The notes below the pieces were generated by a model. It did not search any database, had not been told where the DNA came from, and saw nothing but the letters and a program-made list of their open reading frames with translations. A stretch of 47,901 nt of DNA, from positions 1 through 47,901 of the forward strand of contig VGKP01000004.1 of the NCBI GenBank assembly GCA_016866975.1. Reading direction: 5' to 3'. A program made the translations under genes and the position numbers. This DNA comes from Candidatus Pacearchaeota archaeon. Lineage in GTDB: Archaea > Nanobdellota > Nanobdellia > Pacearchaeales > GW2011-AR1. Positions 75-22,060 of this stretch are shown one piece after another (positions within the stretch are counted from its first letter, which is position 1; every line of letters starts with the position of its first letter).

Positions 75-88
75 TTTTGTGAAGAAAA

Positions 89-175
89 GCCTCTGGGGGG
101 AATTGAACCCCCGACCTCAAGTTTCTTCGACAACTGATACGAAACTTGCGCTCTGACCAACTGAGCTACAGAGGC
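89..175 (-). tRNA. tRNA-Thr(CGU) with a 14-nt intron at canonical position 37/38 (124-137)
   Basis: Reverse complement folds as a cloverleaf: acceptor GCCTCTG/CAGAGGC, D stem GCTC/GAGC, anticodon stem CAAGT/ACTTG around TT-CGT-A, T arm GGGGG-TTCAATT-CCCCC. Intron CGAA pairs with TTCG (positions 32-35), giving a bulge-helix-loop splice motif. No encoded CCA. Confidence 0.95.
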
Positions 176-520: not shown

Positions 521-3235
521 ATGGTGCCTATGGATAGAAAGATGAAAGTGGTGTTTAGTAGGTTTAAGTTTTGTTATTTGGTTTTGTTAGTATCTTTTAT
601 CTTCTCCTTATCATGTGTTAGCGCATTTAATTTTAATGGGACTGTTTATGATATCAATGGGAATCCTCTTGCCAATGCGACGATCAATATTACTACAAGG
701 AGTGTTGTCGATTGGTCGATTGTTGCATATAATGCGACGACAAGCAATGAATCGGGATGGTTTAATATTACTATGCCTGATGTTGCAACTTGGCTCTATT
801 CTCCGCAGATAACTCATAAAAATATTTCAATTCCAACAGCAAACTATACTGATTATGTGGGGCAGTCGCTTCCTGCATTTCCCTCATTTATGTTTGATAC
901 CCTTGGGAGCTTGAATTCTTATTTACGCGAAGCAGGCAGTTTTAATCTCACAGCTATTAATGCGAGCGGGGGAAGAATTGCGTTTAACTATCAGATCAAA
1001 GATACTTCACTCGGTTATCCTATTGCAGAAAGCTTTAATTGGGCAAGTGGAGGGATTTTTGAGGCCAATGTTGTCGTTCCTGCAAATCGCAATTATTCTG
1101 TTATGATTTTCCCCAACCAAAGCTTGCGCGTCAGTTTTGAATGGAATAATTTTACTTCTCGCGCGACATATAATATAACAACTCTTGCAAGTGGAAATAA
1201 TATCTCCCATTACAATGGAACTACGCGAACAGTGCACAAGCAAGTAAATATCACTTTAAGCATGCCTCGTGTCAATGGAACAATCAACTTTACAAGTGCA
1301 ATCAATGTTGCTGGACTTGATAACCTTTCTGTCATCGCCTATCTGATGGAAAGTGGCAATATGATCCATGCTTCTATGGGGGGTATGTTTGCTAATATGA
1401 GCGCGTTTACCAATAGCTTTACAGATCTTTTTAATACTACAACAGGAGTTTACAATATGTCTCTTCCTGCATCTGCTGAGAGTACTTCTTATATGCTTTT
1501 CGCCACAGGAAGAAATGGGACAAATTATCTGGGGGCGTTTGCAAATCTTACCATCCAATATGGTGCTGCCCCGGTGAATATTGATTTTGTCCTTCGGGGC
1601 TTGATAGGAAATCTCTCCTATATCGGCCTTGATGTTGCTGGTGATTTCTCAGCAAAGAAACTTTTTGCCACTGCAAAACAAACATTCCAACTTGTCAATA
1701 AGTCCAATCACAGCATTAGCCAGGCATTCTCGCATATGGAAGTAACGGTAAACTATTCTCAATGGGGTGCTCCAGAGTTCACCTGGATAGAAGATGTCCC
1801 TCAAACAGGAAATGGCAATTTCTCGCTGCCCCTCTTGAATGTCACAGGAATAAAAGAAATGAATATATTTGTTGGAGGGGACAACTATGCCCCCAAAAGA
1901 ATATCTCCTCGAATCGATCAGATACTTTCGGCAAGGCATCTGCAAGGAGGAACCAATAACAATCTTAGCGCGTATAACATAACTATTAATTCATTCAGCC
2001 CAGGAGATATCGATGGGCAAGTAGCTGCAACTAGTATTTCTATGAGTCTTTACATCTCCAATTCAAGCTGTGACGTTCCAAGCCCTGCAAGCACTTGCCT
2101 TATTGGGGGAAGTGGACAGAACATGAGTAGTTTTAATCCCATGGGGGCGATCATGGGTGGTGGAAAACTAAGCTTTAGGATGGGGACAGGCAATATAAGC
2201 GTCCATTACGTCAATGTAGATATGATGGCCTCTGGACCTCCAGATGCGTTGTTTGATGACTCAACAACAGATAGAACGAGTGGGAGTTCTTTTGACCAGG
2301 CAGTGAGATTCGGTTCTGGAGGGCCTAACGTATATGATTTTATTCTAGTTTCTATACCTTATACCGAAACCGCAGGGAGTGGTCTTAATGATGCTAATGA
2401 TGTCAATATGACTATTCCTACGCTCTATGATGACGATTGGAAAGTAATGTGGAATACAACTGCTAATGGGTCTGCTGCAAGTTCTTTGTCAGGAAACTTT
2501 AGCCACTATGTGGCCAAACAAACGGAATGGAACTATCTTCTTGGACAGACTAACTGCACTACTACGGCAAGCGAGTTGAATGCCTCCCGCCCATGCTACA
2601 TCGATAAAACAGGCAATGTTATTTGGATTCGTTTGCCTCATTTCTCCGGAACCGGGCCAAGCATAGTTGGTACCACCGTTGCTTCAACTACAACGCCTGC
2701 TGCAAGTACTGATGGAGGGAGAGCTACAACCACTAATACATGGAAACAGACAATTATTTTGAGTGAGACACAAGTCATTAATGGATATAGTGCAAACCTT
2801 GGCTCCAATGAGAGAGTTAAGTTGACCGTTAATAATGAAGAACATTCGGTAGGAGTGTTGGCAATATCTGCGACAACTGCGACAATACAAGTAGCTTCAA
2901 CTCCTCAGAATGCTACACTTACTATAGGGGAGAGCAAGAAATTCGAGGTGACAAATGATTCATATTATGATTTGAAAGTAACTCTCAATTCCATAACTGG
3001 AAACAAAGCCAACTTTACTATAATTTCTATCAGAGAAGAAATGTCTTCTGCGCAGAAAGTTGCCACACCTAAGGCAGACGATGTTCCTGGAGAACAAAAA
3101 CAACAACAAGTCACTAAAGATCAGCCGATACAGACAAGGAATACTGAAAATAATAACTGGTATTGGGTGCTGGTCGTTGCGATAGTCCTTGTGATTGTAA
3201 TAATCGTAGCGGTGTCAAGATCAAAAAGACACTAA
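521..3235 (+). CDS. Large secreted, C-terminally anchored surface glycoprotein (S-layer/adhesin-like, 904 aa)
   Basis: N-terminal signal peptide, many N-x-S/T sequons, Thr-rich linker, C-terminal TM followed by a basic tail. Confidence 0.85.
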   Translation: MVPMDRKMKVVFSRFKFCYLVLLVSFIFSLSCVSAFNFNGTVYDINGNPLANATINITTRSVVDWSIVAYNATTSNESGWFNITMPDVATWLYSPQITHKNISIPTANYTDYVGQSLPAFPSFMFDTLGSLNSYLREAGSFNLTAINASGGRIAFNYQIKDTSLGYPIAESFNWASGGIFEANVVVPANRNYSVMIFPNQSLRVSFEWNNFTSRATYNITTLASGNNISHYNGTTRTVHKQVNITLSMPRVNGTINFTSAINVAGLDNLSVIAYLMESGNMIHASMGGMFANMSAFTNSFTDLFNTTTGVYNMSLPASAESTSYMLFATGRNGTNYLGAFANLTIQYGAAPVNIDFVLRGLIGNLSYIGLDVAGDFSAKKLFATAKQTFQLVNKSNHSISQAFSHMEVTVNYSQWGAPEFTWIEDVPQTGNGNFSLPLLNVTGIKEMNIFVGGDNYAPKRISPRIDQILSARHLQGGTNNNLSAYNITINSFSPGDIDGQVAATSISMSLYISNSSCDVPSPASTCLIGGSGQNMSSFNPMGAIMGGGKLSFRMGTGNISVHYVNVDMMASGPPDALFDDSTTDRTSGSSFDQAVRFGSGGPNVYDFILVSIPYTETAGSGLNDANDVNMTIPTLYDDDWKVMWNTTANGSAASSLSGNFSHYVAKQTEWNYLLGQTNCTTTASELNASRPCYIDKTGNVIWIRLPHFSGTGPSIVGTTVASTTTPAASTDGGRATTTNTWKQTIILSETQVINGYSANLGSNERVKLTVNNEEHSVGVLAISATTATIQVASTPQNATLTIGESKKFEVTNDSYYDLKVTLNSITGNKANFTIISIREEMSSAQKVATPKADDVPGEQKQQQVTKDQPIQTRNTENNNWYWVLVVAIVLVIVIIVAVSRSKRH

Positions 3236-10868: not shown

Positions 10869-11089
10869 TATGGGTCTAGATCTTCCTTCACTTGCTCGAA
10901 GGTTTTGTATTTGCCCTCGTTATATTCTTGTCGAGATTGAGCGATGCTTTTTTTCGTTTCTTCTGATAATTCAAGGCGATCTTCGATGAGATCCCAGAGA
11001 AGGTCTTCATAACTTTCCTTCTCGTGTAGTTTCATTACTTTGAGTTTGGCAAGGAGCTCAGTGCTCACTTGGATGGTGGTTTCTGCCAT
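10868..11089 (-). CDS. Cognate antitoxin (N-terminal RHH-like)
   Basis: TTIQVS N-terminal strand, acidic C-terminus, directly upstream of the toxin. Confidence 0.85.
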   Translation of the reverse strand: MAETTIQVSTELLAKLKVMKLHEKESYEDLLWDLIEDRLELSEETKKSIAQSRQEYNEGKYKTFEQVKEDLDP

Positions 11090-11094
11090 AATTA

Positions 11095-11119
11095 ATATAT
11101 ACTTGGCTATAGTATATAT
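11095..11119. promoter_or_regulatory. Inverted-repeat operator over the TA promoter
   Basis: atatatact-N7-agtatatat immediately upstream of the antitoxin ATG, overlapping the TATA box. Confidence 0.6.
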
Positions 11120-11237
11120 AGTTTTCTCTCGTGCTTAAGAATTCTGGTTGTGCTTAAAAGATTGAGCTTGATTTTTGACGTTAATGTTTGTGGTGTTTAA
11201 AAAAATAGTAGTGGCCCTGATGACTACAATAGGCGTC

Positions 11238-11306
11238 ATAAACCCATAAGAGGAGGTCCCATCCATCAAAAAGAGTGATGAAACGTCCTCTTCTGGGGAA
11301 AAGAGG
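11238..11306 (-). ncRNA. 69-bp direct repeat copy 2; candidate small RNA gene or attachment site
   Basis: TATA (plus tatttaaa 11332-11339) 26 nt from the repeat edge; a T-run follows on the minus strand near 11200. Confidence 0.5.
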
Positions 11307-11574
11307 CGATAAGATATCTAAGAATAGGTATTATTTAAATCTTATGCTGTGTTTATAGTTGTCGACGATAGAGAGAGTGTTTTTGAGTGTTTTTTGCTGT
11401 CTAAACAGATGTTTATATCTTAATATGTGGTGTTTGAGTAAATTAAATTGCTGTTTGAGGTGTCTTGCCCGAGTTTTTTGAAGTGTTTATGGGGTGTTGG
11501 AATGGTGTTTTTTATGCTTTTTTATCCTCGCTGATGTAGAAAGGTTTATAAAGTAGAGGTGTTGGTATACTATT

Positions 11575-12219
11575 ATGTTTGGTTGGTTATTCAAAAATAG
11601 AGAAAAAGAGAATGGTGATGAAATTCGAGAAAGCTTTTCTGCTGTAAAAAAAGACATGGATGTTGTAGGAAAGTGGATCAAACACCTTGATGGAGCAGAT
11701 AAACAGCTGTTTTCTATATTAAATTCAATAAAGTCTGATTTATCGAATATAAAAAATGAAATTGGAATAATAAGGGAAGAGGTTGATGCGATGAAGGAAG
11801 GCCATAATCATCAACAGGTGTTTGAAAATTTGCCTGTTTTAGGTAAACAAACAGGTGATGAAGATGTTTATACGGCTGTTCAAACGCCTGTTCAAACAGG
11901 TAATTTTTATGAGATTTTTAAGGGTTTAACCCCTCATGAGAGAGCATTGATATTTACATTAATGAATAGTGATCTAAAACTAAGTTATGAAGATTTGGCT
12001 TTGTTGATGGGGAAGGAAAAGTCAACGGTTAGAGGGCAAATAAATGCAATAAAGCAGAAGAGTGAGGGGCTGATTGAGGAGATTACAGAGAAAAATGGGA
12101 AAAAAAGAGTGTTTGTACCCCTAGAAATTAAGGAAAAACTGTCAAAATACGCAAAAGTGAGAGTTGGTAAAAAGAAGAAAGTTCGCGTTAATGCTGTTTC
12201 TGAGGAGAATTTGTCATGA
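11575..12219 (+). CDS. Coiled-coil / winged-helix DNA-binding protein (paralog A)
   Basis: N-terminal heptads, VQTPVQT linker, C-terminal HTH (LSYEDLALLMGKEKSTVRGQINAIK) plus wing. Confidence 0.8.
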   Translation: MFGWLFKNREKENGDEIRESFSAVKKDMDVVGKWIKHLDGADKQLFSILNSIKSDLSNIKNEIGIIREEVDAMKEGHNHQQVFENLPVLGKQTGDEDVYTAVQTPVQTGNFYEIFKGLTPHERALIFTLMNSDLKLSYEDLALLMGKEKSTVRGQINAIKQKSEGLIEEITEKNGKKRVFVPLEIKEKLSKYAKVRVGKKKKVRVNAVSEENLS

Positions 12220-12416
12220 AAAACAGAAAAGTGAGAGTTAAAGAGAGTGAATTTAGAGAAGTTTTTGGAGATTTTAGTCAAAAAAGTGAGGGAAGATGGG
12301 AGCATAAGAACGATCTTCCTGATGAGACAAGAAGTGAGTGCTTTGTGAAGAAAAATGGAAGGGAAATTTGGTTAGGAAAGGGTTAGTTTGCCGTCGCTAG
12401 ACTAAAAAAGTGAGTG
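12153..12416 (+). repeat. Five A(A/G)AAGTGAG iteron-like direct repeats
   Basis: Copies at 12153, 12227, 12282, 12330 and 12406. Confidence 0.55.
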
Positions 12417-12508
12417 CAAATAAATGATTTGATTGACCTTAATCGGATAACCGAATATCTATATCATTTTTAAGAGAGTTAGAGAGAGAAAATTGGTTAA
12501 ACGTACTT

Positions 12509-13429
12509 TTAGATGTCTCTGAGCTGGAAAATTGTGGGAAGAGAGGCTATTTTTTTAAGATCTGGAGAGATCTGAAGTATAATCTTCTTGTTATTTTCCT
12601 TAGTTTTAAGAATAGGTGAGCCTTTTTTAATGAGTTTTTGTACGTAATCACGTATAGAGCTCTCGGTCAAAGAGAGTTTTTGGGCTAAGAGAGGATAATC
12701 TACTGTAAATCCTTGTTCTTCTAATTGATAAATTGCAGAGAATACTTCCATCTCTTGTTTTGTGAGCCTCTTGAATTTTAAACGAACTTCTTTCTTTGCT
12801 TGATCTAGAGTCTCTAAGGCTTCTGAGATCTCGAATAGGTGCTGGAATGTGTGTTCTTGAGGGGTTCTAGAACCGATTTTTGTGTGTAAATGGATGTGCT
12901 GGTCTGTCTGCTGGTCTGTCTGTCTGTCTGCTGGAACCCCATCATTTCCACTGGAAACCATTGATTTTATGCCTTTTAGGACGTATTGATGTGGTTTTTG
13001 TGCTGGAATGCTGGAATTGGTGTGCTGGAATGCTGGGTTTTCTGGATTTTGTGCTGGAATAAGTGTGTTGGTCTGTCTGTCTGCTGAAGAGAACCTAGGT
13101 TCTCTCTCAACACTCTCCTCTTTTGATGAAGGGAAACTAAAATCTTTCTCAACACTCTCCTTCCTAAGGAAACCTTGGTTTCCTTGTGGGTCAACCTTCC
13201 TTTCAACAGGCCCTCCTGAAGGGAAACTAAAATCTTTCTCAACACTCTCCTTCCTAAGGAAACAAAGGTTTCCTTGTGGGTCAACCTTCCTTTCAACACT
13301 CTCCTCTTTTAGGATATCATCTAGTGTCTGTCTTAAGAAAGAAGTTTCTTCATTGAGAAAGGCTATTTGATCTTTGAGGTATTGAATATCTGCCTTTGCT
13401 TTCGCGAAGGCTTCTTTGATTGGGTCCAT
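12509..13429 (-). CDS. Coiled-coil / winged-helix DNA-binding protein (paralog B) with an in-frame repeat insertion
   Basis: N-terminal heptads, QTD-rich linker, C-terminal HTH (YPLLAQKLSLTESSIRDYVQKLIKKG); same layout as paralog A. Confidence 0.8.
   Translation of the reverse strand: MDPIKEAFAKAKADIQYLKDQIAFLNEETSFLRQTLDDILKEESVERKVDPQGNLCFLRKESVEKDFSFPSGGPVERKVDPQGNQGFLRKESVEKDFSFPSSKEESVEREPRFSSADRQTNTLIPAQNPENPAFQHTNSSIPAQKPHQYVLKGIKSMVSSGNDGVPADRQTDQQTDQHIHLHTKIGSRTPQEHTFQHLFEISEALETLDQAKKEVRLKFKRLTKQEMEVFSAIYQLEEQGFTVDYPLLAQKLSLTESSIRDYVQKLIKKGSPILKTKENNKKIILQISPDLKKIASLPTIFQLRDI
12936..12958 (-). promoter_or_regulatory. ORB-like box (origin recognition box) inside the CDS
   Basis: GTTTCCAGTGGAAATGATGGGGT: TTCCAGTGGAA dyad plus G-string, matching the archaeal ORB consensus. 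Confidence 0.65.
13084..13308. repeat. P-family hairpin mosaic inserted in frame in the CDS (contains a 90-bp period duplication)
   Basis: Modules gaagagaacc-NN-ggttctc, tcaacactctcc and ccttgtgggtcaaccttcc also occur intergenically at 33.7-33.9 and 43.3 kb. Confidence 0.85.
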
Positions 13430-13514
13430 TAGTCTGTGATGAGGTATTAGATTATAAGGATTTAGGTAGAGAAAAGAAAGGAGAATTTATATAGAAGCCA
13501 ATTGATAATAATAT

Positions 13515-13784
13515 ATGGATTGGTGGTTGGCAGCAAGCCTGGGTGTTGTGGGAGGACTTGCACGAGCGTGCTTTGGTCTTCTTCGAGCCCTCTCAAATCG
13601 AGAGAAGATAAGGGGAGAGTATTTTCTGACCTCTGTGGTAATTGCTGCACTTTTGGGAGGCATCCTGGGAACATTTCTAGATATAGATACCCGAGTTGCG
13701 GCACTCGCGGGATATGTTGGAACGGATATCTTGGAGAACCTTATCCCTGCGGCTGTTCCTAAAACTATCACTCTTAAACCATGA
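13515..13784 (+). CDS. Small 3-TM Gly-rich membrane protein (holin-like size and topology)
   Basis: Three hydrophobic segments and an AGYVGTD motif; ATGA overlap with the next gene. Confidence 0.7.
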   Translation: MDWWLAASLGVVGGLARACFGLLRALSNREKIRGEYFLTSVVIAALLGGILGTFLDIDTRVAALAGYVGTDILENLIPAAVPKTITLKP

Positions 13785-14065
13785 ACGAAGTCATCAATCA
13801 TCTTTTGATCTCGGCTCTCTTTGGAGTCTTGGGCGCGGTCCTGCGTGTTATTGTTACTGTCAAGAAAATGCAAGGCAGTGGAAGAAGTTTTGAGAGGGGA
13901 GCCTTCCTTGTTTACTTCCTCTGTGCATTAGTTATAGGTGCTTTTTCAGGGATTATTCTAGATTTCGGGAGAACCGGAAGCTTTCTTGCAGGATATGCGG
14001 GCGTTGATTTAATGAAGGGGTATGCTACTGCATTTAAGCGGACAAAGATTCAAGTTAAACGATAG
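13781..14065 (+). CDS. Paralogous small 3-TM membrane protein
   Basis: AGYAGVD motif and the same layout as the upstream gene. Confidence 0.7.
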   Translation: MNEVINHLLISALFGVLGAVLRVIVTVKKMQGSGRSFERGAFLVYFLCALVIGAFSGIILDFGRTGSFLAGYAGVDLMKGYATAFKRTKIQVKR

Positions 14066-14314
14066 TTAGAGGTCGATGTCTTTGCCCTTCTTACTAAAGG
14101 GGAGCCTGTGAGAAATAATGTAAGCTTCATCGATATCTTTTGGTCTTCCCCGCTTTCCTTTTTTTGGTTTTTTGTTTTGATTGTTCAAAAAGCAGTGCTC
14201 TCTCAAGGCATCTAATATGACTTGCTGCAGGGAAGAATAAGCGTAAACCTCTTTTTCGTGTTTGAGATAGGTATGAATCTGTTCTGGAAGGCTTAACAAT
14301 ACCTTTTTAGGCAT
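14066..14314 (-). CDS. Small RHH-like DNA-binding protein with an AT-hook-like KRGRPK
   Basis: N-terminal KKVLLSLP strand-helix pattern; RGRP core. Confidence 0.65.
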   Translation of the reverse strand: MPKKVLLSLPEQIHTYLKHEKEVYAYSSLQQVILDALREHCFLNNQNKKPKKGKRGRPKDIDEAYIISHRLPFSKKGKDIDL

Positions 14315-14447
14315 ATATCTTTTAATATCTTATTATATATAAATATATCCTCATTTCCAATGGTTATTGAGTTGCGTCGATAAAAATTACAAAATTAAAG
14401 GTATTTTAATTCTGGAATAAATGAATTAATTGGGAATTAATGGGGTC

Positions 14448-14738
14448 TCAAAGGATGCTTGGTTTGGTGTCCTGTTTCTTTTTATAGATATCATAGACCT
14501 CATTTGAAAGGCGCCAACGTCTGCGTTTCTTGTAATCTGTGCCATCTTTGTTCTTTGCAATCTCGATTATGAGGTGCTTCTTTTTGAGGTCTTGAAGAAG
14601 GGAAAGAGTAAACTCTTCATCTCGAGCTATTTCTCTGCTTATTTGGACAGTAAAGGCCGATTGAGGGGAGAGGGTAAAGAGATAGTGAAGTATTAGTTCT
14701 TGAATCTTATCTTTTTTCTGCTGAGATAGGGGAGGCAT
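14448..14738 (-). CDS. Small winged-helix protein
   Basis: FTVQISREIARDEEF...LQDLKKKHLI...RRRWRL pattern. Confidence 0.65.
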   Translation of the reverse strand: MPPLSQQKKDKIQELILHYLFTLSPQSAFTVQISREIARDEEFTLSLLQDLKKKHLIIEIAKNKDGTDYKKRRRWRLSNEVYDIYKKKQDTKPSIL

Positions 14739-14848
14739 AGAATAAAATAGAGAGTTGATTATATAAAGATTGTAGGTAGAGGGATAACTAAGAAAGAGAT
14801 AGTTTTATATAGAAATGAGCAAGAAAGTAATTACATTATTCTATTTTT

Positions 14849-17443
14849 ATGACAGAGAAAAACAATGGAAGTATATCTTATATGGGGGCGCATGGGAGCG
14901 CAGAGGTAAAAGGTATTCTGCATCCACTTGTTAAAGAGTGGTTCTTTGGAAGATTTGCCGATTTTTCTTTGACACAGCTTTATGCTGTCAAGACAATATG
15001 GGACAGGAAAAACATATTGGTTAGCGCCCCTACTGGAGGGACAAAGACATTATCGGCTTTTCTTGGAATCCTCAATTATCTTGTAGGATTGGCGGCAAAA
15101 GGGGAGTTGGAGGATAAAATATATGCTGTGTATGTCAGTCCTCTCAAAGCATTAAGCAACGATATATTTGTGAATCTTGTGCAACCCCTGCAAGAAATAA
15201 AGACTTTGGCTGACAAAAAGGGAGTCAAGATGCAAGAAATAAGGGTTGGGCTTCGTACAGGAGATACAGATGCAAGCGAAAGAGCAAGGCAAGCACGGAA
15301 GATTCCGCATATCTATGTGACGACTCCGGAATCGCTTGGCATTGTGCTGGTGACGCCTAAGTTTTCAGAGAATGTAAAGAAGCTGGAGTTTGTTGTTGTA
15401 GATGAAGTGCATGCAATGACGAACAAAAGAGGAGTTTTTTTGAGTTTGGTACTGGAACATCTGTGCAGCATGTGTGTATTGGATCCTGTACGTATTGGAT
15501 TGAGTGCAACTATATCTCCGCTAGAAGAGATTGCACGATTCCTTGTTGGAAAAGGAAGAGATTGCTTGATTGCAGATGTAAAGCTGATAAAGGGTATTGA
15601 TATCGGGCTCGATTTCCCTGGAAAGAGCATATTAGAGGCTGAAAATGCAGAAAGCCAGAAAAAACTATATCACCTTCTGGACGGACTGATACAAGAACAT
15701 AAGACTACTTTGATATTCACAAACACGAGAGCGGCTACTGAAAGGATAGTGCATTATCTAGATTTACACTTCCCTGGAAAATATGCTGGAATCATTGGAG
15801 CCCATCATAGCAGCATGAGCAAAGAGCAGAGGTTCATAATTGAAGATCAGCTGAGAAAAGGAGAATTGAAAGTGGTTGTAAGCTCAACTTCCCTTGAGTT
15901 GGGAATAGATATAGGGAACATAGACCTTGTAGTGCTACTTAGGTCCCCAAAGTCGGTCTCGAGAGCATTACAGAGAATTGGCAGGGCGGGACACCAGCTG
16001 CATTCTCAACCTAAGGGGAGATTCCTTGTGCTAGACAGAGACGACTTGGTAGAATGTGCTGTCTTGATGAAAGAAATGATTGAGAAACATATAGACAGAG
16101 CTCAGATACCTAAAAATTGCCTTGATGTGTTGGCACAGCAAGTATTTGGAATGGCAGTTAGCAGAGTTTGGGATGCTGAGGATATGCTTGCTACTGTGAG
16201 GAGGAGCGCGTGCTATATGTCATTGACAAAAGAAGATTTCTATGATGTATTGAGTTATCTGGCAGGAGATTATGCTCTTGAGCATAGAAGTGTATATGCA
16301 AAAGTATGGTACGATCCTGTGACGAGGCAGATTGGAAAGAAAGGAAAACTTGCACGTGTGCTATACATGACCAATATCGGGACAATTGCTGAAGAAGGAT
16401 TTATATCAGTCGCAATTGGGGCAGGAGAGGGAAAGGGAAATGTTGTTGGGAAGATAGATGAAGGATTCCTTGAAAGAATGAAGAGAGGAGATATCTTTGT
16501 ACTAGGAGGAAGGAAGTATCAGTTCCTCTTTTCCAGGGGAATGAAGGCATTTGTAAGAGCAAACGTTTCCAGAAATCCTACTATCCCATCTTGGTTCTCT
16601 GAGATGTTGCCTCTTTCTTTTGATGTTGCAATGGAAATAGGGAGGTTTAGAAGATTGATTAAAGAAAGATTAGGCGACAAGAAGAAATGTGTTGAATTTG
16701 TAAGAGAATATGCTCGCTGCGATTCAAAAGTCGCAGAGACAGTATACGAATATTGCAGAGAGCAAGAAAAGTTTGCGGCAATACCTGATGATAAGACTGT
16801 TGTTGTAGAAAAATTTAAGGAGAGTAAAGAATTCATGGTATTCCATAGTATGTATGGGAGAAGAGTAAATGATGCACTTGCAAGGGCGTATGCTTATGCT
16901 GCCGCAAGATTGAGGCATAGAGATGTTGAAATGGGGATAACAGACAGTGGTTTTTTTATCGCAGCGGAAAATCTTGATGGAGAGAAGATATTGAAGTTTG
17001 TCGAGTCTAAAAACCTGAAAGAGATATTGAAGGAGGCACTTGAGAGAACAGATGTGCTTCGCAGAAGATTCAGGCATTGTGCTGGGAGGAGCCTGATGAT
17101 TCTGCGGCAGTATAAAGGTAGAGAGAAGAGCGTGGGGAAGCAGCAAGTGCATTCTGAGTTCTTATTTAGTGCAGTCAAGAAGCTAAGTAATGAATTCCCT
17201 ATATTGAGAGAAGCGAGAAGAGAGGTGTTTGAGGACCTGATGGATGTAGAGAATGCGGAAGAAGTATTAAGATGGATTGAGAGCGGGAAAGTAAAAGTGA
17301 AAAGAGTAAATACTCCTCTTGTCTCACCGTTTGCTGTGAACTTGATGATGCAGGGGAGAAGCGATTTAATCAAGATGGAAGACAGGGCGTCATTCTTGAA
17401 GAGGATGCATGAATTGCATTTGAAGGCGATAGGGGAAAAATGA
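14849..17443 (+). CDS. lhr: Lhr-family (Lhr-core) SF2 helicase
   Basis: APTGGTKT, TTPESL, DEVH, SLELGIDIG and QRIGRAGH motifs plus an Lhr-type C-terminal region. Confidence 0.93.
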   Translation: MTEKNNGSISYMGAHGSAEVKGILHPLVKEWFFGRFADFSLTQLYAVKTIWDRKNILVSAPTGGTKTLSAFLGILNYLVGLAAKGELEDKIYAVYVSPLKALSNDIFVNLVQPLQEIKTLADKKGVKMQEIRVGLRTGDTDASERARQARKIPHIYVTTPESLGIVLVTPKFSENVKKLEFVVVDEVHAMTNKRGVFLSLVLEHLCSMCVLDPVRIGLSATISPLEEIARFLVGKGRDCLIADVKLIKGIDIGLDFPGKSILEAENAESQKKLYHLLDGLIQEHKTTLIFTNTRAATERIVHYLDLHFPGKYAGIIGAHHSSMSKEQRFIIEDQLRKGELKVVVSSTSLELGIDIGNIDLVVLLRSPKSVSRALQRIGRAGHQLHSQPKGRFLVLDRDDLVECAVLMKEMIEKHIDRAQIPKNCLDVLAQQVFGMAVSRVWDAEDMLATVRRSACYMSLTKEDFYDVLSYLAGDYALEHRSVYAKVWYDPVTRQIGKKGKLARVLYMTNIGTIAEEGFISVAIGAGEGKGNVVGKIDEGFLERMKRGDIFVLGGRKYQFLFSRGMKAFVRANVSRNPTIPSWFSEMLPLSFDVAMEIGRFRRLIKERLGDKKKCVEFVREYARCDSKVAETVYEYCREQEKFAAIPDDKTVVVEKFKESKEFMVFHSMYGRRVNDALARAYAYAAARLRHRDVEMGITDSGFFIAAENLDGEKILKFVESKNLKEILKEALERTDVLRRRFRHCAGRSLMILRQYKGREKSVGKQQVHSEFLFSAVKKLSNEFPILREARREVFEDLMDVENAEEVLRWIESGKVKVKRVNTPLVSPFAVNLMMQGRSDLIKMEDRASFLKRMHELHLKAIGEK

Positions 17444-18153
17444 CTAAATTAGAGTTTGTTGGAAAGTGTGTGTTTGTGGAAGCTAAGGGAAAGAAGATTT
17501 TAGTTGTTGGGGACTTGCATTTGGGATATGAAGAGGCGCTGAACAAAGCAGGGATTGGTGTGAGCAGGAGATTATTTGGGGAGATGATGGATGATTTTAA
17601 AGAGATATTTGGAAAAATAGGGGATGTTGATGAAGTTGTGCTGCTTGGAGATGTAAAACACGTATTTGGAACTGTATTGGGGCAGGAGAGGGAAGATTTC
17701 AGGAAGTTACTCGAATATCTTAGAGAGAGATGTAGGAAAGTAGTAATAGTGCAAGGCAACCACGATTCGATAGTTGGTTTCCTTATAAGAGAAAATACTG
17801 AAGTGAGGGATTGCTATTGCTTTGATGGCGTCTGCTTCTTGCATGGAGACAAAGATTTTCCCGAAATCCATGAGAGCAATAACGACGTATGGATAATTGG
17901 ACATGCGCATCCTGCAGTGATATTAAATGATGGAGTAAAGCATGAGAAATATAAGTGCTTCCTGGATGGATATTTTGGGGGAAAAAGAGTAGTGATAGTG
18001 CCTAGCTTCGTAGATCACAGCCCTGGAGTTGATGCTAGGAGCGGAGACCTGGGTCTTGCATGGGACATAGACTTGAGAAAATTCAGAGTGAAAGCTGTAG
18101 GAGAAAAATTAGAAGTATTTGATTTTGGTGAATTGGGAAAAATAAAAGAATAA
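17440..18153 (+). CDS. Calcineurin-like metallophosphoesterase (Lhr-associated)
   Basis: GDLHLG, LLGD, GNHD, HG and GHAHP motifs; overlaps the lhr stop. Confidence 0.9.
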   Translation: MTKLEFVGKCVFVEAKGKKILVVGDLHLGYEEALNKAGIGVSRRLFGEMMDDFKEIFGKIGDVDEVVLLGDVKHVFGTVLGQEREDFRKLLEYLRERCRKVVIVQGNHDSIVGFLIRENTEVRDCYCFDGVCFLHGDKDFPEIHESNNDVWIIGHAHPAVILNDGVKHEKYKCFLDGYFGGKRVVIVPSFVDHSPGVDARSGDLGLAWDIDLRKFRVKAVGEKLEVFDFGELGKIKE

Positions 18154-18156
18154 ATA

Positions 18157-18594
18157 TTATTTCTTAAACTCTAACAGAGGAATATTGATATGGAGAGGTA
18201 AGCCCAATTCTTCTTCTAGGGGGATGGCGCGAAGAGTGCATCTTCTTAGAAGAGTGTTGAATAATGGCTGCCTGAGATGATCTGGAATCTCATTCTTCTT
18301 CCAAGATTTCAAAAGATCCTTTGCCTCTTCCTTATTTGCTGAGAGCACAAGTGTGCCTTCAAAAGAGATCTCTCCTTGTTTTTGGCCCTTCTTGTTTTTT
18401 TCATTCTCATTAATCTCAATGTAGTTTAGAGAAAACTTAAAAGAGGCGGTGATTGGTTCGACCTCTTTCAATATTTCCAGCTTTTCCTTTTCAATCGATG
18501 TAAACTCTATATTTGTATCGATGGTGAAGGGGGTCTTGAATTTCTTTGACTTCTCACCAGTTATTTTAGTAAAGTTAAATCCTATAATGTTCAT
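18157..18594 (-). CDS. Conserved archaeal hypothetical protein (possible SecB-like fold)
   Basis: IIGFNFTKI N-terminus, four-strand/helix pattern and LPLHINIP C-terminus; the fold call is inference. Confidence 0.6.
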   Translation of the reverse strand: MNIIGFNFTKITGEKSKKFKTPFTIDTNIEFTSIEKEKLEILKEVEPITASFKFSLNYIEINENEKNKKGQKQGEISFEGTLVLSANKEEAKDLLKSWKKNEIPDHLRQPLFNTLLRRCTLRAIPLEEELGLPLHINIPLLEFKK

Positions 18595-18641
18595 GTAAGA
18601 GTGTAATAAAGATGGTTTTTAAAAGTTGTTATAAATGAATA

Positions 18642-18902
18642 TTATATTAGGTCTTCTTCGGAGATAACTACGAAGTCGCCAATCGCAATTATGGTGTTGT
18701 AAGGTACGAGAGCTTCCTTAGCTGGGGAAAGCTCGAGATTTAAGTTCCTTGTATAAGGGGTAGGGTCCTTGAGGATGAGTTGGATAAGCTCCCCGGTCCT
18801 AGTCTCAAAACTAAGATCTTTGACAAATCCCAATCTTCTTCCTTCTTTTGTGACGACAAGTTTTCCTATAATGTCTTTTAATGGCCTCTTTTCTAATCCC
18901 AT
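18642..18902 (-). CDS. PRC-barrel domain protein
   Basis: IIGKLVVTKEGRRLGFVKDL...VPYNTIIAIGDFVVI. Confidence 0.88.
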   Translation of the reverse strand: MGLEKRPLKDIIGKLVVTKEGRRLGFVKDLSFETRTGELIQLILKDPTPYTRNLNLELSPAKEALVPYNTIIAIGDFVVISEEDLI

Positions 18903-19019
18903 AGATGTTTGAGCTACCTTTTGTATATAAACTTTTCTCTGCTGGAGTGGGGTGTCACCCTATGGTTTCGCATGGAGAATTGAGAAAGATTTAAAAAGAA
19001 AGTAGGAGGTTTTTTCTTT

Positions 19020-19231
19020 CTTATTTTTATTTATAAATTTTTCTATAGTATAGTATATAGTATATTATAATATATATTTTACACTAGGTATAAGTTCGTG
19101 TTATTATTTTAGTTATTGTTTGTTTTAAATAAATTTCCATTGGAAGTCAAGGTGTCTGTGTTTTAATTAAAATATAGATATAAGAAGAGATTTTACAATG
19201 AAATTCAAGTTGTTTTCAGTGGAAATAAAGG
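19020..19231. promoter_or_regulatory. Candidate oriC: AT-rich unwinding tract plus ORB-like boxes upstream of cdc6
   Basis: Nearly pure A/T tract at 19020-19080; TTTCCATTGGAAGTCAAGGTGT (19134-19155) and TTTCAGTGGAAATAAAGG (19214-19231); adjacent to orc1/cdc6. Confidence 0.7.
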
Positions 19232-19291
19232 CTAGAATATCGATATGTTTATAAGAATGATAGACTAGCAAATATGATAAAAGGGTGTAAT

Positions 19292-20494
19292 ATGGATAAA
19301 TTAGATAAGATATTTAGTTCTTTCATTTCGAATAACTTATTTAAAAATAAATCAGTATTGCAATCTAATTATAGTCCCGAGCAGATTACTCATAGGGAAG
19401 CACAAATAGAATCTGTTGCTTCAATATTGGCCCCCGCATTACGAGGGGAGAGAGTTAGCAACTTGTTCATATACGGGAATACTGGAAGCGGAAAAACTCT
19501 AAGTGTAAGATATGTGAGAGATAAAATACTTGAGAAATTGCAGGAGCTTGGAGGAGATTATCTACAGTTCATATATGTAAACTGTAAATTGAAGAAGGTA
19601 GCAGATACGGAGTATAGGATCGTTGCAGAGATGATACATGAGTTGAAAGGAAGCATTCCTGCAACAGGATTGCCAACCGACCAAGTATATCTTAAATTTA
19701 TTGAAATGATAGATGTTAAAAAGCAAGTGATAATAATTATATTAGATGAGATTGACGAAGCAGTAAAGAAGATATCTGATAGGTTCATATATACTCTCAC
19801 TAGATTAAACTCTGAGTTGAAAAATGCGCAGATAAGCATAATAGGTATAAGCAATAGTCTCACATTCATGGACCATTTGGATCCTAGAGTGAGAAGTTCT
19901 CTGAGTGAAGAAGAACTTGTCTTTCCTTCCTATAATGCGTTGCAGCTACAAGATATTTTGAGAGTAAGAGCGGAGCAGGCGTTCAAGGAAGGAGTGCTGG
20001 AAGAGGGAGTGATAGAAAAATGCGCGGCTTATGCCGCGAGAGAGCACGGAGATGCGAGAAGGGCACTTGATTTATTGAGGGTCGCGGGAGAAATATCAGA
20101 AAGGGAGGAGGGGACCAAGATAAAAGTAGAACATATAGACTCTGCAAACCAGAAAATAGAGAAAGACAAGATGCTTGATATAGTGGAGAAAGTTCCCAAG
20201 CAGTTTCAATTAGTTTTGGCTGCGGCACTCTCACTGCATAAAAATAAGATTGAGGAGATATTTACAGGAGATGTATACAACACTTATCAGGATCTGTGCC
20301 AAAAGACCAGAAATGAGGTCCTTACGCAGAGGAGAGTGTCTGATATTCTTGCTGAGTTCGATATGCTTGGCTTAATAAACACAAGAGTCATAAGCAAAGG
20401 CAGGCAGGGAAGGACACGAGAAATAAAACTTATGCTGCCTGGACCAATTCAAGATAAAGCGGAGGAGATACTTCAGAAGTCTTTGTATCTATAA
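19292..20494 (+). CDS. cdc6: Orc1/Cdc6 replication initiator
   Basis: Walker A GNTGSGKT, Walker B LDEID, GDARRALDLLR and a C-terminal wHTH. AAGGGTG SD favours ATG 19292 over 19274. Confidence 0.96.
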   Translation: MDKLDKIFSSFISNNLFKNKSVLQSNYSPEQITHREAQIESVASILAPALRGERVSNLFIYGNTGSGKTLSVRYVRDKILEKLQELGGDYLQFIYVNCKLKKVADTEYRIVAEMIHELKGSIPATGLPTDQVYLKFIEMIDVKKQVIIIILDEIDEAVKKISDRFIYTLTRLNSELKNAQISIIGISNSLTFMDHLDPRVRSSLSEEELVFPSYNALQLQDILRVRAEQAFKEGVLEEGVIEKCAAYAAREHGDARRALDLLRVAGEISEREEGTKIKVEHIDSANQKIEKDKMLDIVEKVPKQFQLVLAAALSLHKNKIEEIFTGDVYNTYQDLCQKTRNEVLTQRRVSDILAEFDMLGLINTRVISKGRQGRTREIKLMLPGPIQDKAEEILQKSLYL

Positions 20495-20497
20495 GAC

Positions 20498-22060
20498 ATG
20501 CATGAAGAATTGCTCCATCTTATAAGAGAAAAAGGCTTATTGTTAGAGAGAGAAATATTTGAATTACTCAATAGTTTTGATAACTTGCAGGCAGCAAAAG
20601 ATTTTTTGGAAGGGATTGAGAGATATTCTGGGCAAAAAATGATAACTCGATCTCTATTACACAACAACTCCTCTTATATCCAACAAGTAGTCTCAAAACT
20701 TCCTGGAAAAGATAAGGCTATGGTTGAACATACATTTGTAAATCTCGGAGTACACCTCGAAATAAGAAAAGAACAAGTAGTCGTCCCATATTCCTCAAAT
20801 CTTAAAGCGAATAAGTATCAGATATTTACTGCAGACACGAAAACTGATAAGAAACTAGCCGTGTCAGATTTTGTAGGAAACCTCAGGGCGAGATACAGCC
20901 AGATGCAGAGGATATTGATGCAGAGGCCTGACCTGACTAACTTGATGTCAATAGGCAAAATATCTAGCAATAGGCAGCAAGTCAGTGTAATAGGAATGGT
21001 GAGAGAAAAGAGAATTACAAAAAACAAGAATATTGTTCTTTTGATAGAAGACTTGACTGGAGAGATACAAGCATTAGTAAGAGCAGACAAAGAAGAGTTG
21101 GCGACTATTGCAGGAGAGATACAGTTAGATGACGTAATAGCGATAAAGGGATCTGGAAACAGAGATCTGATATTTGCACAAGAGGTCTATTTCCCTGATG
21201 CATTCATCCATGAGAAGATTAAATTTGAAGAAGATATGTGCATTGCCTTTCTTTCTGATTTACACTGTGGAAGTGATAGACATCTTGGAAAAAGCTTACA
21301 GAATTTCTTAGACTGGATACAGAGCGATGATCCGCTTGCGGCAAAAGTTCAGTACATTTTTTTCGTGGGAGACAATGTGGACGGTGTGGGAATATTTCCT
21401 GGGCAAGAAAGTGTTCTTAAACTCAAAAGCATGAAAGAGCAATACGCGTTGTTGGCTTCGTATTTGAGGCAGATACCTAAAAGGATAACAATGTTCATGT
21501 GTCCTGGACAGCACGATGCAGTGAGAGTCGCAGAGCCTCAACCAATCATAGCAAAACATTATGCTCCAGAACTGTATGAAATTGAGAATCTGGTACTTGT
21601 AACAAATCCTACATTAATCAAGTTATTAGAAGCAGAAAAAGAGTTTAAGGTTCTTATGTATCACGGGGCCAGCATACATACATTCATAAGCGAGATACAA
21701 GAGCTTAGACTCATGAAGGCACACAAGACGCCAGCCAAAGCAGTAAGGCACATGCTGAAAAGGAGACATCTTGCCCCAACACATTCTTCTGTGGTATATA
21801 TTCCTTCCCCAGAAAAAGATCCTCTTGTTATAACGGAAGTTCCCGACGTCCTCTGCACAGGAGAGGTTCATAGACTGGATATAGAAAATTATAATGGGGT
21901 GCTTATAGTAACTGGAAGTTGCTGGCAGGCACAAACTCCCTTTGAAGAAAAAGTCGGGAATATACCTGATCCTGCCAAGGTGCCTGTGCTAAACCTTAAA
22001 ACAAGAGAACTAAGAGTATTGGATTTTGGAGATGTTAGCGAGGTGCAGCGTGAAAACTGA
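20498..22060 (+). CDS. polD1: DNA polymerase D small subunit (DP1, proofreading exonuclease)
   Basis: OB fold; SDLHCGS, GDNVDG, PGQHD, HG and HLAPT phosphoesterase motifs; lies between cdc6 and DP2. Confidence 0.95.
   Translation: MHEELLHLIREKGLLLEREIFELLNSFDNLQAAKDFLEGIERYSGQKMITRSLLHNNSSYIQQVVSKLPGKDKAMVEHTFVNLGVHLEIRKEQVVVPYSSNLKANKYQIFTADTKTDKKLAVSDFVGNLRARYSQMQRILMQRPDLTNLMSIGKISSNRQQVSVIGMVREKRITKNKNIVLLIEDLTGEIQALVRADKEELATIAGEIQLDDVIAIKGSGNRDLIFAQEVYFPDAFIHEKIKFEEDMCIAFLSDLHCGSDRHLGKSLQNFLDWIQSDDPLAAKVQYIFFVGDNVDGVGIFPGQESVLKLKSMKEQYALLASYLRQIPKRITMFMCPGQHDAVRVAEPQPIIAKHYAPELYEIENLVLVTNPTLIKLLEAEKEFKVLMYHGASIHTFISEIQELRLMKAHKTPAKAVRHMLKRRHLAPTHSSVVYIPSPEKDPLVITEVPDVLCTGEVHRLDIENYNGVLIVTGSCWQAQTPFEEKVGNIPDPAKVPVLNLKTRELRVLDFGDVSEVQREN

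Follow-up and report, generated by a model that had tools for sequence, protein, structure and literature searches.

A predicted origin recognition box within the coding sequence of a winged-helix gene near the replication origin of a Pacearchaeota genome

The DNA analysed here (the window) is the entire 47,901-nucleotide (nt) contig C4 of a Candidatus Pacearchaeota genome of 805,708 bases (31 contigs, 89% complete), and it carries two convergent genes, here termed A and B, which encode coiled-coil/winged-helix proteins and lie close to the gene of the replication initiator Orc1/Cdc6 (cdc6). Embedded in the coding sequence of B is a short box that resembles the origin recognition box (ORB) of archaea. 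It is considered probable, at about 60%, that this box is a genuine ORB-type site, i.e. of the kind recognised by the single Orc1/Cdc6 protein, and that it is an accessory site, probably of high affinity, which is situated outside the canonical origin.

The box in gene B

On the minus strand (12958-12936) the box reads GTTTCCAGTGGAAAT GAT GGGGT, and its in-frame translation is V-S-S-G-N-D-G-V (residues 158-165 of B), which falls in the part of B that encodes the disordered linker and has a predicted local distance difference test (pLDDT) score of ~55 in the AlphaFold2 model. The first-pass annotation, which had been made from the letters of the window, named 12936-12958 in the linker of B as the best ORB match; the position is correct, and the 14-mer GTTTCCAGTGGAAA is found only once in the whole genome. 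Its sole match with one mismatch is at 19212, upstream of cdc6, the 12-mer core has a match with one mismatch at 19134, again upstream of cdc6, and the complete pattern of dyad and G-string is present as a single copy in the 806-kb genome. The dyad matches the mini-ORB core TTCCAGTGGAAA(C/T), and the GGGGT that follows 3 nt past the dyad is invariant in 35 orthologs of B. The euryarchaeal ORB consensus is GTTCCAGTGGAAAC-AAA----GGGGG (PMC1868953), and the reverse complement of the Pyrococcus furiosus ORB1 oligonucleotide includes TTCCAGTGGAAATGA (PMC1904270), so that 15 consecutive bases are identical between ORB1 and the box of B.

For comparison, 41 related genomes were used, and the codon alignment of B comprises the 35 orthologs from across the order; B homologs also occur in other families of the class, from which 24 sequences entered the codon check, with 63 orthologous loci overall. 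A degenerate 20-nt pattern (dyad plus GGGGT) is found in 37/41 related genomes, nearly always as one copy inside B, while the reversed pattern, used as control, is found in 0/41. In four genomes (G037, G013, G035, and G039) additional copies of the pattern lie 140-500 nt upstream of cdc6. With a weight matrix that was trained on the B boxes, boxes are detected immediately upstream of cdc6 in 9/9 cdc6-holding loci, and these form an inverted pair in 8/9; with small pseudocounts the matrix missed the weak cdc6-proximal boxes of the analysed genome, which a milder version detected. On account of this recovery, the specificity of the pattern and the match to the consensus and to P. furiosus, the motif in B is, as judged by comparison of sites, the ORB type of this lineage. 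Literature searches returned unrelated mammalian primer sequences only for the exact box, and nothing relevant for DPANN origins.

The likeness to ORBs could also have arisen if the box were an operator of B or A rather than an Orc1 site, and both kinds of site shared a winged-helix recognition mode. Such an operator would be in keeping with the recognition helix of B, which like the box is invariant across the order; moreover, hhalign pairs the box peptide and the QT repeats that follow it with the VQT region of A, and GGGGTTCCAACAG resembles GGTGTTCAAACAG at the DNA level. An operator of B or A would, however, not be expected upstream of cdc6, where the motif recurs in all nine loci and as an inverted pair in eight, nor to match published Orc1-bound ORBs, hence this explanation is very unlikely.

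The codons of the box are frozen to an extent that is not seen elsewhere in the gene. In the 35 orthologs they are TCC in 35/35, GGA in 32/32, AAT in 33/35, GGG in 34/34, GTT in 35/35, and CCA in 28/28, whereas the 29 further columns of this alignment that are conserved and degenerate have a top-codon share of 0.35-0.83; Ser columns that are conserved elsewhere in B use TCC in 1/30 and 4/34, and one conserved Gly uses GGG in 2/31. In the class-level homologs from other families, TCC, GGA, and GGG are kept in 24/24, and any of T, G, C, or A occurs at the third position of the Val codon, which lies immediately after GGGGT. At two loci, L080 and L082, translation runs through the only box in a different frame, so that VPQE..G replaces SxGNxGV, and the second boxes of L060 and L066 likewise have their frame shifted. 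Frozen synonymous sites together with the frame switch place the selection on the nucleic acid, i.e. by the evidence of these alignments, purifying selection holds the box as DNA and not as a protein motif. Invariance of the ORB bases at synonymous sites, which the first-pass annotation had put forward as a check, is thus found in the homologs.

Two other accounts of the conservation were considered and rejected. A conserved peptide motif is ruled out by the frozen synonymous sites and by the box that is kept in another frame, and an mRNA hairpin, in which the dyad would fold into a 5-bp stem with a 3-nt loop, explains neither the invariant G-string nor the noncoding copies at cdc6.

Further matches were noted outside gene B. 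A weak ORB-like match, TTGCAATGGAAATAGGGAGGT, lies at 16626-16646 (plus strand; matrix score 16.8) inside the Lhr helicase gene. Extra full ORBs are present at L110 (G013:C9), position 3118, and L111 (G015:C107), position 1655, in AT-rich noncoding DNA, where they are flanked by GTATAC-containing repeats and have no origin-region genes (A, B, cdc6, Lhr, or others) nearby; these may be plasmid or virus origins that use the host Orc1.

Canonical origin and gene order

What defines an Orc1 context is an inverted ORB pair upstream of cdc6. A canonical origin in this position, at ~18.95-19.24 kb of the window, is the most likely start of replication, as the B-box matrix finds inverted ORB pairs at AT-rich DNA upstream of cdc6; in the window, AT-rich DNA lies between the origin boxes. 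The box of B and the cdc6-distal origin box point the same way in all cases. In several loci (L053, L054, L056, and 19150-19165 of the window), an extended G/T tract, GGGGTGAGGGTGTGTTTT, often comes after the noncoding oriC boxes and includes the GTGTTT core that is common to the repeat array of gene A.

In the window, cdc6 lies 5.8 kb from B, where ~6 kb had been given from the letters alone. The gene order across the order is A> <B <small gene [Lhr> phosphoesterase>] <g18160 oriC cdc6> DP1> DP2>, with a gap of 2-15 kb between B and cdc6, and A is found in 36/41 and B in 38/41 of the relatives. In the other families of the class, A, B, and cdc6 are on one contig in 4/5 sampled genomes, 8-32 kb apart, with the pair counted as linked to cdc6 in three of the five, and the arrangement of the window, with A and B convergent and B divergent from cdc6, occurs in two of the five. 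The locus is origin-linked in every relative that has both genes on one contig. Throughout the order, the uncharacterised small gene at 18160-18594 (minus strand) is a constant part of the origin block and lies between oriC and the pair of Lhr and phosphoesterase genes. As a further observation on the initiator, five genomes from other families (G043, G063, G109, G161, and G173) have a second, divergent Orc1/Cdc6 (~31-37% identity) besides the origin-linked one, while the searched genomes of the window's own order have mostly a single Orc1/Cdc6.

Since GC skew in the window follows gene orientation, with no turn at 19 kb, a 511-kb contig of the relative G018 was used instead. There, AT skew and MK disparity are at their highest over the whole contig at 308.8 kb and stay on a plateau as far as ~324 kb, and A-B-cdc6 occupies 312.1-316.3 kb, which supports the locus as a replication switch point. 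The maximum is within 4-6 kb of both B and cdc6, which are 2 kb apart in this genome, so that the resolution is insufficient to separate them.

The skew switch is as compatible with B as with cdc6. In one alternative, the A-B module would itself be an origin, either a second one or the true one, where the box, the repeats and the microsatellite would load Orc1 and A and B would serve as auxiliary initiators. The box of B is the best ORB in the genome, repeat arrays and microsatellites are always found beside it, and a second ORB is present in B at seven loci, inverted in L036, L041, L045, L047, and L051 and present also in L057 and L061. Most genomes, however, have a single box, and these seven, with the second box usually inverted, are the only such cases among the loci examined; transcription and translation cross the site, and A and B are single generic winged helices without an AAA+ or Rep-type build. 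No AT-rich unwinding element is found at the box, where the local GC content is 0.37-0.44, and this is what argues against a second origin, while a complete canonical origin is present upstream of cdc6 in the window and in all nine relatives examined. An origin within the A-B module, as the first-pass annotation had considered, is therefore quite unlikely.

Several points count against the reading of the box as an accessory ORB-type site. The spacer between dyad and G-string is 3 nt here and 7-8 nt in the euryarchaeal consensus, and in the analysed genome the box of B stands alone, with neither a second inverted box nor an AT-rich element. The boxes upstream of cdc6 have matrix scores of 9.6-18.4 vs 31.6 for the box of B, a comparison biased by the training of the matrix on B boxes only; with origin boxes this weak, one could argue that the box of B would be the principal Orc1 site. 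The related genomes are non-independent samples. In addition, genome G136 (same family, 95% complete) has neither B nor the box, so that the element may be dispensable, with gaps in the assembly being possible; a further genome without A and B, G032, is uninformative, as its cdc6 lies at a contig end.

Proteins, repeats and other cis elements

The features of the locus are collected in Table 1. In the AlphaFold2 models of both proteins, a long helix at the N terminus is followed by a disordered linker and then by a winged helix at the C terminus, in line with the shared layout of coiled coil, linker and winged helix that had been read from their sequences. The two had also been called paralogs; although BLASTP finds no significant similarity between them (E = 58), their linkers and winged helices align in a profile-profile comparison with a probability of 97% and E = 3e-11, hence at the level of sequence profiles A and B are true paralogs. 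The top Foldseek matches of the winged helices of A and B (E = 7e-5 and 7e-4) are AbfR2 (Lrs14 family), MepR, and MarR, while searches of A and B against Pfam, NCBIfam, and PDB sequences gave sub-threshold matches to generic helix-turn-helix (HTH) or coiled-coil entries only. A and B thus have a generic MarR/Lrs14-type winged helix only, and a role of either as initiator or segregation protein would be conjectural.

Table 1. Coordinates of the features discussed (positions in the window).
Feature	Position	Strand	Description
(G/C)TGTT(T/C) repeats	11349-11510	plus	seven one-strand copies upstream of A; spacings 28, 10, 43, 21, 32, 22 nt
Gene A (214 aa)	11575-12219	plus	coiled coil 4-76, disordered linker 77-108, winged helix 111-195
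Tandem 12-nt units nnTGTTCAAACr	11872-11901	plus	in linker of A, translated VQT; Tandem Repeats Finder: period 12, 2.2 copies
Hairpin, 10-bp stem	12279-12330	plus	flanks AAAAGUGAG and CUGA; in the 3'-3' gap between A and B
Gene B (306 aa)	12509-13429	minus	coiled coil 3-45, disordered linker 46-191, helix 192-220, winged helix 224-305
Fifth ATTCCAGCA copy	12840-12848	minus	downstream of the box
(GACA)n-type microsatellite	12897-12935	minus	directly after the box; translated DRQTDQQTDQ; plus strand = GTCTGTCTGCTGG repeats
Origin recognition box (predicted, by sequence)	12936-12958	minus	dyad TTTCCAGTGGAAAT, spacer GAT, G-string GGGGT
Upstream repeat arm	13001-13086	minus	four ATTCCAGCA in three frames, then second (GACA)3 block at 13071-13086
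Dispersed palindromic repeat	13084-13308	minus	in-frame 225-nt insertion including a 90-nt tandem duplication; adds ~75 aa to B
Small gene (96 aa)	14451-14738	minus	directly upstream of B and co-directional in 18/19 order-level relatives examined
Canonical oriC (B-box matrix)	18957-19234		ORB-like boxes at 18957-18977 (minus), 19135-19155 and 19214-19234 (plus); AT-rich stretch ~19000-19125
orc1/cdc6 (single copy)	19274-20491	plus	PolD DP1, then DP2, downstream

The box of B is accompanied by repeats. GTCTGTCTGCTGG occurs at 12902, 12922, and 13075 (the last with one mismatch), with an expectation of 0.03, and TGCTGGAAT occurs seven times in the window vs 0.54 expected. Five of these copies lie inside gene B, at 13001, 13009, 13023, 13052, and 12840, and fall into frames 0, 1, 2, 0, and 2 of B, respectively; a sixth repeat, TTCCAGCA, adjoins the G-string at 12929-12936. 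The first-pass annotation had listed the GTCTGTCTGCTGG repeats and four TGCTGGAAT copies in three frames, all of which are present together with the fifth copy at 12840, and it had held that the repetition is at the DNA level, with which the copies in all three frames and the non-3n units agree. TGCTGGAAT and (GACA)n would thus be DNA-level, non-3n arms of the box.

A short tandem repeat directly past GGGGT is found in every ortholog, with a unit that varies by lineage (4, 8, 11, or 12 nt); elsewhere the units are (CAAC)n-like, (ATTC)n, (AATC)n, 8-mers or 11-mers, none of them with a codon-compatible period. The heptamer that touches the G-string is TCCAGCA here and TCCAACA, TTCGACA, or TTCGGCA in others, and it recurs at least twice within 200 nt in 44/63 loci, at a density 9x that of flanking DNA. 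The lineage-specific units and the recurrence of the heptamer suggest that the presence of the arms is conserved, while their sequence evolves in concert within each lineage. For the arms, several readings may apply: half-sites of low affinity, binding sites of A or B, or traces of mutation brought about by a protein that is bound tightly.

Tandem repeats with tetranucleotide or 11-nt units within a coding sequence, as they occur here in every lineage, are also what would be expected if microsatellites made B a phase-variable contingency gene, with the box as a conserved peptide or a by-product of slippage. All 63 orthologous frames are, however, intact from coiled coil to winged helix, in consensus assemblies that hide minority frameshifted alleles, and a phase-variation switch is hence not supported; the box itself is non-repetitive, and a peptide motif is incompatible with its frozen synonymous sites and with its reading in another frame, which renders this explanation extremely improbable.

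The dispersed palindromic repeat within B recurs in the window at 33.7 and 43.3 kb and, outside it, on contigs C2, C5, C7, and C10; the 225-nt insertion is specific to the analysed genome and is missing from the orthologs.

Gene A bears cis elements of its own. The 300-nt window with the highest density of (G/C)TGTT(T/C) genome-wide lies here (7 copies vs a mean of 0.26, standard deviation 0.53), as do all of the eight top-scoring windows, and a TGTT(T/C)AAACA palindrome and related arrays are found 100-200 nt upstream of A in 21/32 orthologs. The 12-nt units in the linker of A are partly palindromic (CTGTT..AACAG; family form nnTGTYCAAACA), and in 33 orthologs the linker codons are ACA in 28/28 and 29/29 and CAA in 31/33, with GTT or GTC only for Val, while other Thr, Gln, and Val columns vary. 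In the 511 kb of G018, 6/7 TGTYCAAACA sites lie within 2.3 kb at gene A. The coding regions of both A and B thus bear cis elements, and the proposal that cis sites overlap the genes' own reading frames holds. The recognition helices of A and B, which are invariant as well, fit these invariant targets; we infer the pairing, in which the array at gene A would be the most plausible target of the winged helices of A and/or B.

From these sites one could also arrive at an origin-proximal centromere or chromosome-organising system, in which coiled-coil dimers of A and/or B would sit on the repeats of their own genes and the Orc1 box would tether them to the origin. The (G/C)TGTT(T/C) array is unique in the genome, with spacings that are mostly whole helical turns, the clustering of TGTYCAAACA sites in G018 and the joint invariance of recognition helices and gene A sites would fit, the pair adjoins the origin as parS sites do, and A has a weak, near-full-length match to a ParB-HTH profile, which is below threshold (E = 0.026). 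Plain autoregulation fits the same data, however, the extended upstream array is found mainly in one family, and no ParA/SegA-type ATPase family was matched in Pfam scans of the open reading frames (ORFs) at 0.5-28 kb (every ORF of at least 130 aa and several smaller ones). A centromere of this kind is therefore unlikely.

The hairpin in the gap between A and B is found in 10 genus-level relatives, with compensatory changes in two pairs, and an Rfam search of 11000-19400, the hairpin included, gave no match; it could be a 3' untranslated region element, a K-turn-like protein-binding hairpin or a small RNA. Other copies of AAAAGTGAG in this gap resemble partial copies of the 5' flank of the hairpin. 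The small ORF at 12216-12386 has one weak homolog only and is probably no gene. The 96-aa gene is likewise uncharacterised and a constant part of the origin block throughout the order; in the window, inserted small genes separate it from B, of which it is likely the operon partner. ARAGORN calls a tRNA of undetermined identity at 88-175 (minus strand) with a four-base anticodon loop call (cgta), which may be intron-containing or otherwise unusual.

Possible roles and known systems

If the box in B is an accessory Orc1 site, Orc1 bound inside the gene could act as a roadblock or operator that would tie the production of full-length B to initiator occupancy; alternatively, or additionally, Orc1 at this box might contribute to a higher-order origin complex. 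The fixed position of the box in B, its fixed orientation and its survival with 4-13 kb of genes before oriC argue that the box is tied to its host gene, as it would be if it served as a roadblock or operator. A more extended and tentative possibility is that A, B, and the embedded DNA signals make up a control circuit of DPANN archaea that is coupled to the origin and has not been described before. Here, Orc1 on the box would physically gate the synthesis of B, B would pair with A via the coiled coils and bind the gene A arrays, possibly along with the GTGTTT tracts that follow the origin boxes; the function of the A-B complex would then be to organise, license or segregate the DNA around the origin. 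If true, such a circuit would be a cell-cycle switch made from overlapping coding and cis information in tiny cells.

In the box of B, a DNA signal and a reading frame would share the same bases, and the apparent protein motif STGNEGV is an artefact of selection at the DNA level, which calls for caution in the motif-based annotation of disordered regions. It would also mean that the best-conserved predicted Orc1 site of the class lies in a neighbouring regulator-like gene and not at the origin. To our knowledge, no DPANN archaeon has yet been grown in pure culture, and Orc1, A, B, and 40-bp duplexes are directly testable reagents for replication control in this group.

Among known systems, the MarR/Lrs14 regulators, such as AbfR2 of Sulfolobus acidocaldarius (6cmv), share the winged-helix fold with the C-terminal domains of A and B, which in contrast also have a coiled coil at the N terminus and a long disordered linker, fall below the sequence-family cut-offs and form a conserved convergent, origin-linked paralog pair. 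As in the case of parS sites in or next to parB, or of the AspA site of pNOB8, the putative cis sites of A and B overlap or adjoin the genes of the DNA-binding proteins themselves, near an origin; unlike these systems, A and B have no ParB fold and no ParA/SegA partner among the scanned ORFs. The canonical ORBs of Sulfolobus oriC1, Pyrococcus oriC, and Haloferax oriC1 (consensus in PMC1868953) share the dyad core TTCCAGTGGAAA and a downstream G-string with the box of B, and this is the motif type that flanks AT-rich DNA upstream of cdc6 in the relatives studied here. The box of B differs from them in being coding, solitary and without an unwinding element, and in its shorter spacer.

By analogy, the closest precedent would be the ORB cluster in dp1 of the Thermococcales, where an ORB3/mini-ORB cluster lies inside dp1 in Pyrococcus and Thermococcus and the Pyrococcus cluster is bound by Cdc6 in vivo and in vitro with an affinity comparable to that of oriC (Matsunaga et al., 2007; PMC1904270). 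In the window, DP1 (20498-22057) has no match to the matrix. The dp1 cluster and the box of B are both ORB-type and intragenic, lie a few kb from a cdc6-adjacent origin and are conserved order-wide, and in both cases two ORB sites flank or accompany cdc6. In contrast to dp1, the host gene B is an uncharacterised coiled-coil/winged-helix gene on the opposite side of cdc6, with one full box instead of a mini-ORB cluster, which is placed in a disordered linker at a distance of 2-15 kb. The box of B is furthermore always accompanied by non-3n arms and a microsatellite and shows class-level conservation, frozen codons and frame switches. Taken together with the dp1 cluster, it suggests that accessory Orc1 sites outside oriC are recurrent and functionally important in archaeal origin regions.

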